DNA of 32,000 nucleotides. Origin: Candidatus Kuenenia stuttgartensis. Lineage in GTDB: Bacteria > Planctomycetota > Brocadiia > Brocadiales > Brocadiaceae. How positions within the stretch are numbered: the stretch's first letter is position 1; each line of letters begins with the position of its first letter. The position numbers and the translations under genes were made by a program. Below, in pieces: positions 17,033-21,385 of this stretch. The DNA is taken from the NCBI RefSeq assembly GCF_900232105.1, contig NZ_LT934425.1:390001-422000 (forward strand), read 5' to 3'. Under the pieces are notes generated by a model. The model had not been told where the DNA came from, did no database searches, and worked only from the letters and a program-made list of their open reading frames with translations.

Positions 17033-17210
17033 CGCTTCAAAAGGACACGAGTTTTGTAACTTCTCAAAAAGTTGTAGTAGTTGCAGTTGGTAGAAGGTAG
17101 AAGGGGAAATTCATTGAGGGACAAGTTTTGCCTCCATTAACTCCGCACTTCAGTGCGAAGATACCGTAAAATACCCCGGCGTTAGTCATGACTTTCAGCT
17201 ATGCCGTAAC

Positions 17211-17243
17211 CCTGACAGGATTTTCAAGCCCTGTCAGGATTAA
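17211..17243. repeat. Solo diverged copy of the family-C central hairpin
   Basis: ccctgacaggattttcaagccctgtcagg compared with ccctgacagggtttcaaaccctgtcaggg in the MITEs. A half-copy (cctgtcagggttgttt) lies at 7425-7440. Confidence 0.6.
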
Positions 17244-17294
17244 AACCGGCAATTACTTATTCATTAAAACGCATTTGGTTAACGTTGCTTTCGT

Positions 17295-17330
17295 GCTCGC
17301 ACCCAAACTCCTGTTTGGGAACGTAATTGC
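17295..17330. repeat. Family B repeat, diverged copy
   Basis: gctcgcacccaaactcctgtttgggaacgtaattgc aligns with gctcgttcccaagctccggcttgggaacgtaattgc at 1717-1752. Confidence 0.65.
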
Positions 17331-17437
17331 ACTGGAAACTACATTCGTGGGTTCAGGCTTCGTCTGGAATTCAGGCAAACGGTTGCAAACCTGAACCCAC
17401 CGGGAGTCGTGTAATGTTTACGCCGAATAGTAACTAT

Positions 17438-17809
17438 TTATTTCTTCTTTTTTGCACTTGGTTTTGCAGTTGCCTTTGATTGTGTTTTCGGTTTTGCTTT
17501 TGGTTGTTGTTGTGATTTTGCTTGTGGTTTTGTTTTTACAGCTTTTTTTGTAACGGTTGTTCCTGTTTTTTTCTTTTCTTTTGCTAATGGCGCAGGATTA
17601 CAGAGTTGGTCCCGTTTGGAAGCAATGCGACCGCAGGAATTACATACATATTTAAGTGTCACAAGCTTAGGCGCACACACATGGCGCGGGTCGCTGGTTA
17701 ACGCACCGCAATAATAACATGCTATCGCCCTTTGCATCTCGATAGGTTTACATAAATGCCCTTTGTTCGTTGTCGTCATACCACACGTTTCACACGTATA
17801 AACAGCCAT
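17438..17809 (-). CDS. Small protein with three periodic Cys modules and a lysine-rich C-terminal tail; function unknown
   Basis: Strong SD (GGAGGAG, 6 nt before the ATG) overlapping the stop codon of the upstream gene. Three C-x2-C-G-x9-C-x-P modules with an exact 25-residue period (Cys 6/9/20, 31/34/45, 56/59/70). Residues 73-123 are rich in K, P, A, T and Q. Confidence 0.8.
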   Translation of the reverse strand: MAVYTCETCGMTTTNKGHLCKPIEMQRAIACYYCGALTSDPRHVCAPKLVTLKYVCNSCGRIASKRDQLCNPAPLAKEKKKTGTTVTKKAVKTKPQAKSQQQPKAKPKTQSKATAKPSAKKKK

Positions 17810-17819
17810 AATTCTCCTC

Positions 17820-19337
17820 CTATATCTGACCTTTTTTCGATCTATAATAAGTTAAAAGATATTGATAAACTTCATCCTCTGTCGCAAATACTTTTTTCAA
17901 ATAAGAAACAGCCTCTTCAATATTTCCCTTCTCTAAAAATATTAAACCAATATTTCCATAAGCAGCAGTGAGATTCTCATCAAACAGAATAGCTTTTTTA
18001 TATTCTTTTATCGCTTCATCATACTCTCCTTTCCGGTAGTAAACAGTCCCTATATTATTTCGCAAAACGGCATTTTCAAGGTCTTCCGCAATCAACGCCT
18101 TATACTCATTTATTGCTTCTTTGTAGTTGCCGTTGTTTTTATATGCCAAAGCAAGCGCAGTATGTATTTGTTTATTTGATGGATATTCATTCATTGCATC
18201 TCTATATGTCAAAATTGCCTTGTCATATTCCGTTACACCCATAAACCTATTGCCCCGCATTAACAGGCGTGTTTCATGCGGTGTTATCGTCCCCCAACAC
18301 CATACAAACGTTAACAATAGCATCAAACTCAATACCAGAAAACTTCTATTTTGCGGAGTAAATTCTGTTATTGTTATACGCTTCTTCTCAACTATTTTTA
18401 CTATCATCACGGCAAAACATAATCCCCATACAGCGCCAAGCAACGTTTGGAAACTACCAAGATACTTTTGTGTATAAAATGCCGTGATTATTCCGCAAAA
18501 GACAAGAAACAACTCAACGTATATACTATAATTGCCCGATTCAGGAATCAACCATCTGAACTTACGGGTCAAAGACAAGGCGCTCATGCCGGATTTGTAA
18601 CCTAATGTCCCGTTTTTACATGCATCCTTACACGAAAGGCAGCGTATACAATTTGCATTGACAACCGCGCTATGCTTGGCAATCTCTTCGTGTACCGTTA
18701 TTCCCATAATACAATTTCTCGTGCAATTCATACATCCGGTACATTCCCTGATTTTCCTTATCCGCCAAAAACTAATATTCTCAAATAGTGCAAGCAGAGG
18801 AGCCCATGGGCACACGTATCTGCAGAATGCCCTTGATCCCATAAGATAAATGAAGAGAAAGGCGTCAAATAAGAGAAAGGATGCAATAATAGCAGGGCTT
18901 CGGGGGAGGTCTGACGTCATAACCTGCGTATCACTGATATTAATATGAAACTGAGGAATGCCATAAATATACCAGAATTCAAAAATGGCAGTTATCGTTT
19001 TCAGGAGAAATACATACTGTATGATATTTGCTCTGGAATGAATAATTGAGGGATTTATTCCACACTTATTAAGCACCCGTAAAGCAAATTCCTGGAAAAA
19101 AGCAAAGTGGCATCCCCATCCACAGAATACCCTTCCAAAAAACACTGTTATTAATACAATAATAATAAAAAAAGCGGCGGCGGAATTCAGCAGGCCAAAA
19201 CCTAAAAGGGTGACAATACCATTCATGCTAAAGGTTCCTACCTTCTGAAATCCATATTTATACCACAGCAGAATATGGACTATTATGAATACATTTATTG
19301 AAAATAGTACAATTAACCTTTTTTTATTGATATTCAT
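17820..19337 (-). CDS. NapH/NosR-like membrane 4Fe-4S (polyferredoxin) protein fused to C-terminal TPR repeats
   Basis: Multiple TM helices. Membrane-proximal motifs FCGWGCHF and FCRYVCPW. Two ferredoxin motifs CTGCMNCTRNC and CIRCLSCKDAC. More TM helices follow, then about four TPR-like repeats (e.g. YKNNGNYKEAINEYKALI, YYRKGEYDEAIKEYKKAI). Confidence 0.8.
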   Translation of the reverse strand: MNINKKRLIVLFSINVFIIVHILLWYKYGFQKVGTFSMNGIVTLLGFGLLNSAAAFFIIIVLITVFFGRVFCGWGCHFAFFQEFALRVLNKCGINPSIIHSRANIIQYVFLLKTITAIFEFWYIYGIPQFHINISDTQVMTSDLPRSPAIIASFLLFDAFLFIYLMGSRAFCRYVCPWAPLLALFENISFWRIRKIRECTGCMNCTRNCIMGITVHEEIAKHSAVVNANCIRCLSCKDACKNGTLGYKSGMSALSLTRKFRWLIPESGNYSIYVELFLVFCGIITAFYTQKYLGSFQTLLGAVWGLCFAVMIVKIVEKKRITITEFTPQNRSFLVLSLMLLLTFVWCWGTITPHETRLLMRGNRFMGVTEYDKAILTYRDAMNEYPSNKQIHTALALAYKNNGNYKEAINEYKALIAEDLENAVLRNNIGTVYYRKGEYDEAIKEYKKAILFDENLTAAYGNIGLIFLEKGNIEEAVSYLKKVFATEDEVYQYLLTYYRSKKGQI

Positions 19338-19508
19338 AACATGATAAAATCAACCAAACGAATAATATCTTTTGAAGATTACTATTTTTAGGCGTGAGGG
19401 TAGAGGCTTGCCGTATGACGAAGATTTGAAACATTCGGGGGAGGCAACTGTAAAGAGGCCTTTTGAACTTTATCATCAAAGACCTCTTTATTGGTTAACT
19501 TCATAATA

Positions 19509-19581
19509 TACCCCCAAGGGGATTTGAACCCCTGTCTCCAGGCTGAGAACCTGGCATCCTGGGCCTCTAGACGATGGGGGC
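19509..19581 (-). tRNA. tRNA-Glu (anticodon CUC)
   Basis: Minus-strand sequence gcccccatcgtctagaggcccaggatgccaggttctcagcctggagacaggggttcaaatccccttgggggta folds as a cloverleaf. Anticodon stem ccagg/cctgg with loop ttCTCag; T-arm agggg-ttcaaat-cccct. Closely resembles canonical bacterial tRNA-Glu. CCA is not encoded. Confidence 0.9.
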
Positions 19582-19637
19582 GCTTCAGGTCAAAATATCA
19601 TTGTCAAAATAATATGTCGGAAAACGAATAGCTTACA

Positions 19638-19666
19638 AACTTACAACATTTATTTTCTTATGTCAA
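19638..19666 (-). promoter_or_regulatory. Putative sigma-70-type promoter for tRNA-Glu
   Basis: On the minus strand: TTGACA (19666-19661), 17-nt spacer, TAAGTT (19643-19638), about 50 nt upstream of the tRNA 5' end. Confidence 0.35.
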
Positions 19667-19704
19667 CAAAATTCATCCTGTTGCCTGAAATTCCTTTCTC
19701 TGAT

Positions 19705-20481
19705 TCAAAAAGAAACCCTTCTCCCCGATTTTGTGATTGCAGTTTTTCCAAAATCGGGCATCTTTCCTAATGCCTCTGCGTTAAAAACCGGTCCGTCAAT
19801 ACATATTCGCTGCCCACTACAGTCGCATTGGCCGCAAATGCCAAACCCACATTTAATATATCTTTCAATTGATACTTCACAATCAATATGGCGTTCATTG
19901 CATAATTCGAATATTTTGTACAACATTTTTTCAGGACCGCATGCATATATCTTTTTATAATTATGTTGCCCTGTTAATTCTCTCAACAAATCAACCGTTG
20001 TTCCTCTGTAACCAAAAGAACCATCATCTGTACATAATTTCATCTCTCTGAAGCGATGTTGAAAAAGCAATTCCGGCATAGTCCTTGCCCCCTGAATGAT
20101 TGTCGTATTTTTCTGCATATCCGCTAAACACGCAATAGAAGCCATTCCAATACCACCGCCTACAATACACGTAGCCGCATTGTTTTCAGGCAAGCCATAT
20201 CCCATGCCATACGGCCCCCTGATACCTATTTGATCTCCCTTTTTCTTTGTATGCAAGGTTTTTGTAAATTCACCTCTTTTTAATACAGTTATCCCGGCAA
20301 CATTTCCATCAATATAGGAAATAGTAAATGGTTTCTCGTCATTTAGCGGAACCCAAACCATAATAAACTGCCCCGGCTCATACTGTCCGGCATACTCAAA
20401 GAAAAACGTTTTTACGTTTGGAGTCTCATCTATGATATCGTATATTTTTACCATTTTTGGCTGTTCAATCATGGGCAACAC
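19705..20481 (-). CDS. pyrK: Dihydroorotate dehydrogenase (class 1B) electron-transfer subunit, FAD/2Fe-2S
   Basis: Ferredoxin-reductase-like fold (PGQFIMV, RGPYG, GGGIG) and the C-terminal 2Fe-2S motif CGFGICGQCDCSGQRIC. It overlaps the pyrD stop by 17 nt. Confidence 0.9.
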   Translation of the reverse strand: MLPMIEQPKMVKIYDIIDETPNVKTFFFEYAGQYEPGQFIMVWVPLNDEKPFTISYIDGNVAGITVLKRGEFTKTLHTKKKGDQIGIRGPYGMGYGLPENNAATCIVGGGIGMASIACLADMQKNTTIIQGARTMPELLFQHRFREMKLCTDDGSFGYRGTTVDLLRELTGQHNYKKIYACGPEKMLYKIFELCNERHIDCEVSIERYIKCGFGICGQCDCSGQRICIDGPVFNAEALGKMPDFGKTAITKSGRRVSF

Positions 20482-21385
20482 CTACAAGCTCATTAATAGT
20501 GTTATACCCGTTTTCAATCATCCACTGCTTCATTTCAGCGCACACCTTGCTGAAAACATTAATTCCTCTTGTGTAAACGCCGGTTCCAATGCCAACAGCC
20601 GAAGCCCCTGCCATCATCATCTCTATCGCGTGCCTTCCTGTGGATATGCCCCCTACTCCGATAATTGGAATTTTCACCGCCTGGTAAACGTCATACACAC
20701 AACGTACGGCAATCGGCCGCAAGGCGTCCCCGGTGACGCCCCCGACCTTAAACCCTAACACAGGTTTCTTTGATTCAATATTAATTACCATTCCAGGACC
20801 CATTGAATTCACGGCGGTAATGCCGTTTGCCCCTGCATCCTCTGCTGCTTTTGCAATTGAGGTGATTTCAGGCACGTTTGGTGATATTTTCACAAATATA
20901 GGCACATTTGTTTTTCGTCTCACCGCATAGGTTATTTCGTAGGTAGCCTTTGGAGTTCCCTGTCCGGACAGAAGGCCAAAACCAGGAGTATGAGGACAAG
21001 AAAGCGGTATTTCGATAGCGGAAAACCCGGATGCTGACAGCCCCTCTGCAACCTCAATGAAATCATCCGTACAGGTTCCAATAATACTGGCAATTACAGG
21101 AACGCCTATTTCATTAAGGTTCGAATATTCGATACGTGCGGCCTCAACACCAGGGTTCGAATATCCTACGGCATTTAACATTCCCGCCTCGTAGGTAATA
21201 ACCGTCGGATTATGATGGCCTTCCCTTGAATCCTTACTTACGGATTTAATCGTTACCGCACCGGCTCCACTTTCTGCCACTCGTTTTAATAATGTCTTTG
21301 TGGTTCCCAGTATTCCCGAAGCCAGCACCGTTGGATTCGACAATCGCATACTACACAAATTTATTGATAATGTTACCTCTGTCAT
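20465..21385 (-). CDS. pyrD: Dihydroorotate dehydrogenase catalytic subunit (class 1B)
   Basis: LSNPTVLASG, MLNAVGYSNPG, IEIPLSCPHT (active-site Cys), GGVTGDALRPIA and IIGVGGI blocks. The partner gene pyrK is adjacent. Confidence 0.9.
   Translation of the reverse strand: MTEVTLSINLCSMRLSNPTVLASGILGTTKTLLKRVAESGAGAVTIKSVSKDSREGHHNPTVITYEAGMLNAVGYSNPGVEAARIEYSNLNEIGVPVIASIIGTCTDDFIEVAEGLSASGFSAIEIPLSCPHTPGFGLLSGQGTPKATYEITYAVRRKTNVPIFVKISPNVPEITSIAKAAEDAGANGITAVNSMGPGMVINIESKKPVLGFKVGGVTGDALRPIAVRCVYDVYQAVKIPIIGVGGISTGRHAIEMMMAGASAVGIGTGVYTRGINVFSKVCAEMKQWMIENGYNTINELVGVAHD

Follow-up and report, generated by a model that had tools for sequence, protein, structure and literature searches.

This article concerns KSMBR1_0402 (kuste4193), a protein of 123 amino acids encoded at positions 17438-17809 of a stretch of 32,000 nucleotides from Candidatus Kuenenia stuttgartensis (contig NZ_LT934425.1, positions 390,001 to 422,000; 'the window' below, whose numbering we use, and in which every feature that we describe by position lies on the minus strand). 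On the evidence of its relatives' sequences, it is a member of a widespread family without a name in Pfam or NCBIfam, and it is this family, more than the operon in which the Kuenenia gene is paired, that we consider to be the object of interest. Based on the contexts and domain fusions in which the family is found, we favour a rubredoxin-like role in O2 and NO defence, as a redox or oxidative-stress metalloprotein for which the iron-sulfur (Fe-S) domain of a NapH-like neighbour would be a plausible donor in Kuenenia and Brocadia; we hold this tentatively, and put it somewhat short of an even chance.

As we picture it, the small protein would be a stand-alone cytoplasmic metalloprotein, whose core, about 75 residues long, repeats a knuckle of rubredoxin or zinc-ribbon type three times in tandem; every module would open with a Y-x-C-x2-C-G hairpin and continue into a turn that bears [H]-x-C-x-P. 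It might then act as a metal-thiolate redox partner between Fe-S or flavin donors and the O2- and NO-defence enzymes of strict anaerobes, with flavodiiron protein (FDP), rubrerythrin and superoxide reductase (SOR) as the electron acceptors. In Kuenenia and Brocadia, the small gene would have become co-transcribed with that of a NapH-like polyferredoxin, whose cytoplasmic Fe-S domain could serve as a local, quinol-linked donor, and the Lys-rich tail would be an accessory electrostatic anchor, probably on a polyanion such as nucleic acid or an anionic membrane face, that family members have gained, lost or switched from one terminus to the other. In this picture, the metal and its redox chemistry, the partners and the function of the tail are inferred; what we observe is how the sequence and its ligand pattern are conserved, where the family is distributed, its gene contexts and domain fusions, and how strongly the gene is transcribed.

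Anammox bacteria and syntrophic Desulfobacterota are slow-growing, O2-sensitive organisms of environmental and engineering importance, and the supply of electrons to their O2 and NO defences is poorly known. The genomic company of the family (FDP, a rubrerythrin that lacks a rubredoxin domain and a fusion to SOR) points to a role in oxidative stress. If its Cys3His modules bind a redox-active metal, they would join the few small electron carriers that are known, and if they bind zinc and nucleic acid, they would be a new type of bacterial finger.

A family of three-module proteins

Translation of the open reading frame (ORF) bears out the pattern that an initial annotation had read in the small protein, including its motifs GHLC, RHVC and DQLC. 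The Cys residues fall at 6/9/20, 31/34/45 and 56/59/70, a period of exactly 25 residues, giving three copies of C-x2-C-x8-[H]-x-C-x-P. Module 1 (residues 4-22; 17744-17800) reads Y-x-C6-x2-C9-G-x5-K-G-H18-L-C20-x-P22, module 2 (residues 29-47; 17669-17725) reads C31-x2-C34-G-x5-P-R-H43-V-C45-x-P47 and module 3 (residues 54-72; 17594-17650) reads Y54-x-C56-x2-C59-G-R-x8-L-C70-x-P72. His18 (in GHLC) and His43 (in RHVC) lie two residues N-terminal to the final Cys of their respective modules (1 and 2), and this position is taken by Gln68 (in DQLC) in module 3, which is left with three Cys only; the predicted ligand sets are two Cys3His sites and one Cys3 site. Behind the modules comes a tail (residues 73-123; 17441-17593) that is polycationic by composition, with 18 Lys (close to the 20 or so first estimated), 8 Ala, 7 Thr, 5 Pro and 5 Gln among its 51 residues.

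The small ORF is genuine and conserved, and its Cys and His positions are fixed among homologs, with none of the free variation that would have spoken against the initial annotation. We counted conservation over 135 family representatives and assessed invariance over 40 sequences from several phyla. All nine Cys, H18 and H43 are invariant in the latter, together with a set of residues that are not ligands (G17, L19, P22, R42, Y54, G60 and R61). In modules 1, 2 and 3 of the representatives, respectively, the C-x2-C-x8-[H]-x-C spacing is kept in 124, 134 and 135, the ligand His is found in 133, 133 and 15 (module 3 otherwise having L, A, E, D or Q), and a Pro stands two residues past the last Cys in 127, 94 and 132. 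Judged from these alignments, the repeat pattern is far beyond chance. The length and position of the tail vary among homologs: 37 representatives have a basic tail at the N-terminus, 28 at the C-terminus and 3 at both ends, and 67 have none. An Anammoxibacter-type homolog ends in GGCCGGGCS in place of a basic tail, and tail-less proteins of 166-173 residues with six modules in two domains also occur (P0039, P0047, P0051 and P0060), in some of which the His of module 3 has been regained. Two anammox-order genomes outside the Brocadiaceae have the small gene in tandem duplicate (L067, at G031:C2:180545-181155, and G024:C108:7802-8414).

The family is found in 37 of 40 Brocadiales genomes, with all five sampled families of the order represented. 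A sample of 299 Planctomycetota genomes has it in 14 of 14 Brocadiales, and the other 283 or so contain no member except for two weak partial matches. Further afield, a profile search of 1.84 billion representatives returned 180 clusters at E<=1e-10, a number that rises to 407 at E<=1e-3, and a scan of GTDB species genomes found members with 50-55% identity in Brocadiales and several other lineages, namely metagenome-assembled genomes (MAGs) labelled Thermodesulfobacteriota/Deltaproteobacteria (Syntrophaceae, Syntrophorhabdus), Nitrospirota, Nitrospinota, Omnitrophica and one Bacillota; Riflebacteria have the family as well. In the Desulfobacterota-type phylum of one such MAG, 55 of 301 evenly drawn genomes carry the family. 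These hosts (anammox bacteria, syntroph-type Desulfobacterota, Nitrospirota, Omnitrophota and Riflebacteria) are all anaerobic lineages. Ten relatives go by the name 'hypothetical protein' or that of a fused domain, and in the literature that we searched we found no mention of the locus tags kuste4193, kuste4192, KSMBR1_0402 or KSMBR1_0403, no match for 'RCKP' together with rubredoxin-like, and nothing specific on the anammox nucleoid or its small proteins.

What, then, do the modules resemble? The steadiest profile matches, though sub-threshold, are those to the RCKP-type rubredoxin-like domain and the desulforedoxin FeS4 domain. The first of these (NF045720) is matched weakly by 31 of 40 relatives, with a best E of 6.8e-5 and scores of 13.7-17.3 bits against a curated 45, over positions 1-19 of a 34-position model, and the second is matched, again sub-threshold, in 28 of 40 members. 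Rubredoxin proper (PF00301, threshold 23 bits) is absent from the E<=1 matches of KSMBR1_0402 and 15 relatives; the rubredoxin Fe(Cys)4 site calls for two C-x2-C-G knuckles per domain, and a family module combines a single C-x2-C knuckle with [H]-x-C. Zinc ribbons also need two CxxC knuckles where the family module has one, and among their models (PF13248, PF09723, PF12773 and relatives) the best, Zn_ribbon_3, reaches 20.7-22.9 bits against 27. In searches of the PDB, the family profile matches PRDM9-type C2H2 arrays at E 1.4e-10, which looks from the alignment like a resemblance of hairpins, not membership. We rejected membership of the C2H2 class: the aligned part is the hairpin plus 'K-x-H-L', its aligned His does not correspond to the zinc-binding one of C2H2 fingers, and a 3-residue insertion is required in each repeat. 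In addition, PF00096 gives 15.7-18.2 bits against a cut-off of 25.2, and the ligand spacing is C-x2-C-x8-H-x-C, not the C-x2-4-C-x12-H-x3-5-H of C2H2.

AlphaFold2 (AF2) predicts for each module a short strand, the knuckle, a bridge strand, a one-turn helix just ahead of H-x-C and a third strand, and the models are consistent with a zinc-ribbon or rubredoxin-like hairpin in which the second knuckle is shortened. The core model (40 sequences) has a predicted local distance difference test score (pLDDT) of 74 and a predicted template modelling score (pTM) of 0.54; the full-length model has a pLDDT of 68 and a disordered tail (pLDDT <60 across it). A Foldseek search of the PDB with both models gave nothing at E<0.5.

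Redox company and rival readings

Rubredoxin is the classical reductant of FDP, rubrerythrin and SOR, all three of which frequently occur in fusion with a rubredoxin-like domain. Three separate lines in the sequence record tie the family to these enzymes, which we set out with the proviso that many of the context counts come from related genomes, so their independence is overstated. The first is a set of about 25 Syntrophia-type loci that run lipoprotein, small protein (83 residues), FDP, IscU and PmbA/TldD, often with a nitroreductase upstream, an order that recurs in 4 genomes of an evenly drawn set of 40. The second comes from 5 of those 40 genomes, where the gene for a rubrerythrin of 167 residues without a rubredoxin domain precedes, by 23-40 nt, that of a family member which is acidic and has no tail (loci L136, L139, L143, L146 and L147; genomes G553, G493, G611, G583 and G523). 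Rubredoxin (PF00301) is found in none of these five genomes versus 263 of the 301, and among family carriers in the 301 this lineage is the only one noted to be without it. The third is P0148, which unites a rubredoxin-like domain, desulfoferrodoxin (SOR) and the family domain in a single protein. The family domain is further fused to a 2x[4Fe-4S] ferredoxin in Omnitrophota (L101), to dodecin in two cases, to Hsp20 in Riflebacteria and, in one case, to a receiver domain, and other neighbours include ferritin, LarC and, in Omnitrophota, a DEAD-box helicase 6 nt upstream. We also observed that the five rubrerythrin loci share the order aldehyde dehydrogenase, rubrerythrin, family member and aminotransferase, and that a long-tailed member of 159 residues in a Nitrospirota MAG is followed after a gap of 1 nt by a LarC-type nickel-insertion protein (L079:4428-5606).

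Kuenenia itself has the enzymes that such a partner would serve, its genome encoding two FDPs, at least five rubrerythrin-family proteins and one SOR. In published reads per kilobase per million mapped reads (RPKM), the small gene stands at 499 under NH4 limitation and 794 under NO2 limitation, SOR at about 300 and the two canonical rubredoxins at 0-11 (PMC7438415, supplement 2). The small-gene transcript is several-fold above neighbouring housekeeping genes, and stands at 5-9 times gyrA and about half of the main Csp. Elsewhere in the genome, genes for SOR, a ferredoxin and two Hsp20 proteins adjoin (KSMBR1_2244-2247), at 150-320 RPKM (PMC7438415 supplement); SOR, ferredoxin and Hsp20 are partners that are fused to the family domain in other organisms.

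There is also a bolder form of the favoured reading, which we regard as unlikely. Here the family would define a new class of redox cofactor, with three mononuclear Cys3His/Cys3 iron sites or small Fe-S sites offering SOR, FDP and rubrerythrin an alternative to rubredoxin; in anammox bacteria these sites would be wired to quinol through the NapH-like protein, and the tail would localise defence at the nucleoid or membrane.

A good deal weighs against a rubredoxin-like role. KSMBR1_0402 falls below the cut-off of every Pfam and NCBIfam model, those of rubredoxin included, and the Cys3His and Cys3 sets, as read from the sequence, are not the rubredoxin-type Fe(Cys)4 and are more typical of structural zinc. 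By sequence, half of the family has tails like that of histone H1 and most members are basic (the cores have a median isoelectric point (pI) of 8.4 and are net positive in 101 of 133), which would be odd company for the classical rubredoxins, these being acidic. AF2 confidence is no more than moderate (pLDDT 68-74). Turning to the contexts, the gap to the FDP gene is 39-341 nt, so that no operon link is demonstrated there; the five genomes without rubredoxin are probably closely related and amount to about one event; and the fusions to a receiver domain and to Hsp20 fit an electron carrier poorly. A general replacement of rubredoxin by the family was considered and rejected, rubredoxin being missing from 8 of 55 genomes with the family and from 30 of 246 without it. 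Anaerobes in any case have many Fe-S and redox genes, and a certain amount of adjacency would arise by chance.

The rival that survives best, though we think it rather unlikely, is that the small protein is a zinc-finger nucleic-acid binder, in which three structural Zn sites and an H1-like tail coat or chaperone DNA or RNA, making it an abundant nucleoid- or RNA-associated protein. Its charge is what one would wish for: the pI is 9.96 for the whole protein and 8.8 for the core, the tail is more than a third Lys, and the occurrence of basic tails at either terminus in 68 of the 135 representatives suggests selection on charge and not on sequence. The tail of one relative (P0034) matches Pfam HC2 (PF07382) at 31 bits, under the cut-off of 40, and KSMBR1_0402 has no match to this model. 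The profile match to PRDM9-type arrays can be counted here too, as can the receiver fusion, in which the family domain takes the usual place of an output domain, the nearby DEAD-box helicase gene in Omnitrophota, and a transcript as abundant as that described above. However, half of the family manages without a tail and 30 of 133 members are acidic overall, the C2H2 match is one of hairpins only, with a non-ligand His, a different spacing and a sub-threshold PF00096 score, and the loci examined show no conserved association with genes of replication, transcription or the ribosome. The SOR, ferredoxin and dodecin fusions and the rubrerythrin and FDP operons are hard to account for by nucleic-acid binding. 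Of the initial suggestion of a membrane redox module coupled to a metalloprotein that binds nucleic acid or another polyanion, the nucleic-acid part keeps the probability just given, but the contexts and fusions point more to redox chemistry or oxidative stress.

Decidedly less probable, in our opinion, is a protein that, like Hsp33 or RsrA, uses zinc-thiolate sites as a redox switch or to sense stress, and from which oxidants or NO would eject the metal, altering its binding to chaperones, to regulators or, via the tail, to DNA. Such a switch would make sense of ties to stress proteins at large (the Hsp20 and receiver fusions, and FDP, rubrerythrin, ferritin, IscU and nitroreductase as neighbours), the three-Cys module 3 leaves a coordination position open or labile, and the hosts are anaerobes, with anammox cells in particular having to handle NO. 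On the other hand, Pfam, NCBIfam and PDB profile searches found no sequence match to known switch families, and a high constitutive transcript is less what one would expect of a sensor than of a stoichiometric partner. The published comparison of two Kuenenia conditions does not show the small gene as differentially expressed (PMC7438415).

These readings are not fully exclusive, and a redox core joined to a polyanion-binding tail would, by analogy, resemble Dps in its logic.

The NapH-like neighbour and the locus

The gene order and annotations of this region match those of K. stuttgartiensis MBR1, in which KSMBR1_0402/kuste4193 and the gene upstream of it, KSMBR1_0403/kuste4192, are both labelled 'hypothetical protein' (PMC7438415 supplements). 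The upstream gene (17820-19337) encodes 505 residues and, as first annotated, proves from profile models and hydropathy to be a NapH-like polyferredoxin with extra transmembrane (TM) helices and C-terminal tetratricopeptide repeats (TPRs). Its matches are to Fer4_5, the 4Fe-4S dicluster domain Fer4_9, TPR_2, TPR_8 and TPR_11, and its motifs are FCGWGCHF, FCRYVCPW, CTGCMNCTRNC and CIRCLSCKDAC. The NapH-like part (residues 1-262; 18552-19337) places four hydrophobic helices ahead of two CxxCxxCxxxC clusters and so has the NapH/MauN architecture of four TM helices, two C-x3-C-P motifs and two [4Fe-4S] clusters, with His for Pro in CGWGCH. It scores 67.8 bits over residues 57-248 against the cut-off of 213 for napH (TIGR02163), and is therefore no NapH equivalog; NF007013 gives 58 bits against 234. 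No napA, napG or nosZ is present among the listed ORFs around it, the neighbours being tRNA-Glu, pyrK, pyrD, the small protein and an AddA-like helicase. Neither protein of the pair belongs to a curated Pfam or NCBIfam family, in keeping with the earlier view that neither architecture is a characterised family.

Three further hydrophobic segments were found by hydropathy scan (residues ~270-290, 294-316 and 331-351; 18282-18545), followed by the TPR domain (residues ~355-505; 17823-18275). By the positive-inside rule, the Lys/Arg-rich loop between the second and third extra helices is predicted to be cytoplasmic, and the same rule and the helix count predict a cytoplasmic Fe-S domain and, because the number of added helices is odd, a non-cytoplasmic TPR domain. 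A leaderless cytoplasmic small protein could therefore meet the Fe-S domain, and not the TPRs. The fusion had been called unusual, which it is not: full-length orthologs of the 505-residue protein are confined to part of the Brocadiaceae, but distant proteins at 26-33% identity share its NapH-like and TPR domain order. At 13 Brocadia-type loci (L044:1844-2350 and 12 others), the gene directly upstream of the NapH-TPR gene encodes a protein of 168 residues with a signal-peptide-like N-terminus and no Pfam match; this protein, which is absent at the Kuenenia site, is a candidate partner of the predicted extracytoplasmic TPR domain.

The pairing with the small gene is genuine but local and lineage-specific. 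On the minus strand the junction reads CAG ATA TAG GAGGAGAATT ATG, with 10 nt between the genes, and, as initially reported, the Shine-Dalgarno sequence GGAGGAG (17814-17820, read directly, 4 nt 5' of the small-gene ATG) overlaps the upstream stop codon; one base is common to both, the first G of GGAGGAG being the last base of TAG. The expectation that the two genes would be conserved neighbours holds within limits. A tight gap of 2-18 nt is kept in 15 of 16 paired loci, of Kuenenia and Brocadia type, but these 16 are all that have NapH-TPR directly upstream among 44 anammox loci with usable upstream sequence. In the remaining 28 the place is taken by pyrK, the exported 168-residue protein, an FmdB-type zinc ribbon or another gene, mostly across 190-466 nt, and in one genus (genome G012) the two genes are both present and 1.47 Mb apart. 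As a defining module the pair does not stand, since the small protein is present in all five sampled Brocadiales families and in other phyla with differing neighbours. Moreover, the NapH-TPR gene is transcribed at 107 and 174 RPKM under the NH4- and NO2-limited conditions (PMC7438415, supplement 2), which the small gene exceeds by 4.6-fold, and the two products are therefore not simply stoichiometric. A reading close to the initial one, of the small protein as a dedicated subunit, translationally coupled to the NapH-like/TPR protein and docking on its TPR domain, draws on the 10-nt gap, the overlapping Shine-Dalgarno sequence and the arrangement kept in those 15 loci, but is very unlikely in view of the loci that lack the pairing, the separated genes of G012, the unequal transcripts, the phyla in which the family occurs without any full-length NapH-TPR ortholog found and the membrane predicted to lie between the TPRs and the small protein. 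A rubredoxin-type partner is more likely than a fixed subunit.

Other genes next to the family are of interest in themselves. A protein of about 90 residues with the pattern C-x2-C...C-x2-C (CLMCG...RRCxKCNQ) and no Pfam match is encoded 3' of the small gene in many Brocadiaceae (L044:4968-5237 and relatives), its Kuenenia copy lying 345 kb away (G000:C1:752204-752440; L109). In Scalindua- and Anammoxibacter-type loci (L082, L096, L099, L105, L106 and L108), an FmdB-family zinc-ribbon protein with a Gly/Cys-rich C-terminus is found directly upstream.

Within the window, the genes upstream of the pair are pyrD (20465-21385) and pyrK (19705-20481), both from the ORF list, and tRNA-Glu(CTC) (KSMBR1_0404; 19509-19581), which was found by ARAGORN and is annotated in PMC7438415 (supplement 1). 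The gap of 367 nt between pyrK and the NapH-TPR gene houses this tRNA gene, and the NapH-TPR/small-gene pair is therefore set apart from the pyrD-pyrK unit. The pair may be co-transcribed with tRNA-Glu or driven by a promoter between 19338 and 19508; a scan of 17100-19800 for promoters and terminators turned up fewer promoter-like sites than shuffled sequences do, and is silent on an internal promoter either way. Downstream, the gene for the AddA-like helicase is convergent with that of the small protein. The synteny with pyrD-pyrK was considered as a functional clue and judged to be inherited order, since it is confined to Brocadiaceae and is interrupted by the tRNA gene in Kuenenia.

Comparison with known systems

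Rubredoxin, together with the related domains of rubrerythrin, desulfoferrodoxin and flavorubredoxin, resembles the family in the Y-x-C-x2-C-G knuckle hairpin and in small size, as well as in keeping company with FDP, rubrerythrin and SOR and in being fused to those enzymes. It differs in having two CxxC knuckles, where the family has one CxxC plus H-x-C (or x-x-C) in each of three tandem modules, and the family is also set apart by being mostly basic and often polycationic-tailed, with no model that reaches its cut-off. Tandem C2H2 and C2HC arrays, such as those of PRDM9 and the bacterial Ros/MucR fingers, share with the family Y-x-C-x2-C-G, 'K-x-H-L' and the repetition of short modules at a near-constant period (28 residues against 25). 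They differ in ligand spacing: that of the family is too tight for a ligand-bearing helix of the C2H2 kind, HMMER places the family His on a His that is not a ligand, and Foldseek has no finger-array match at E<0.5.

The Hc1 and HC2 (PF07382) proteins of Chlamydia have tails that are, like that of the family, rich in Lys, Ala, Pro and Thr, of low complexity and highly basic; the family tail differs in being dispensable in half of the members and in occurring at either terminus, and its HC2 match is sub-threshold. For the 505-residue protein, the appropriate relatives are NapH, MauN, NosR and CcoG, with which it shares four TM helices, two C-x3-C-[PH] motifs and two CxxCxxCxxxC clusters, and from which it is distinguished by the three added helices, the TPR domain and the lack of napA, napG or nosZ nearby.

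Finally, the bacterial metallothionein SmtA holds a Zn4Cys9His2 cluster, and its ligand count is equal to that of the family core (nine Cys and two His) at a similar size. We found no sequence similarity between SmtA and the family, and the strict 25-residue period of the family, taken with its invariant non-ligand residues, would point to three separate folded modules rather than to a single SmtA-like cluster.

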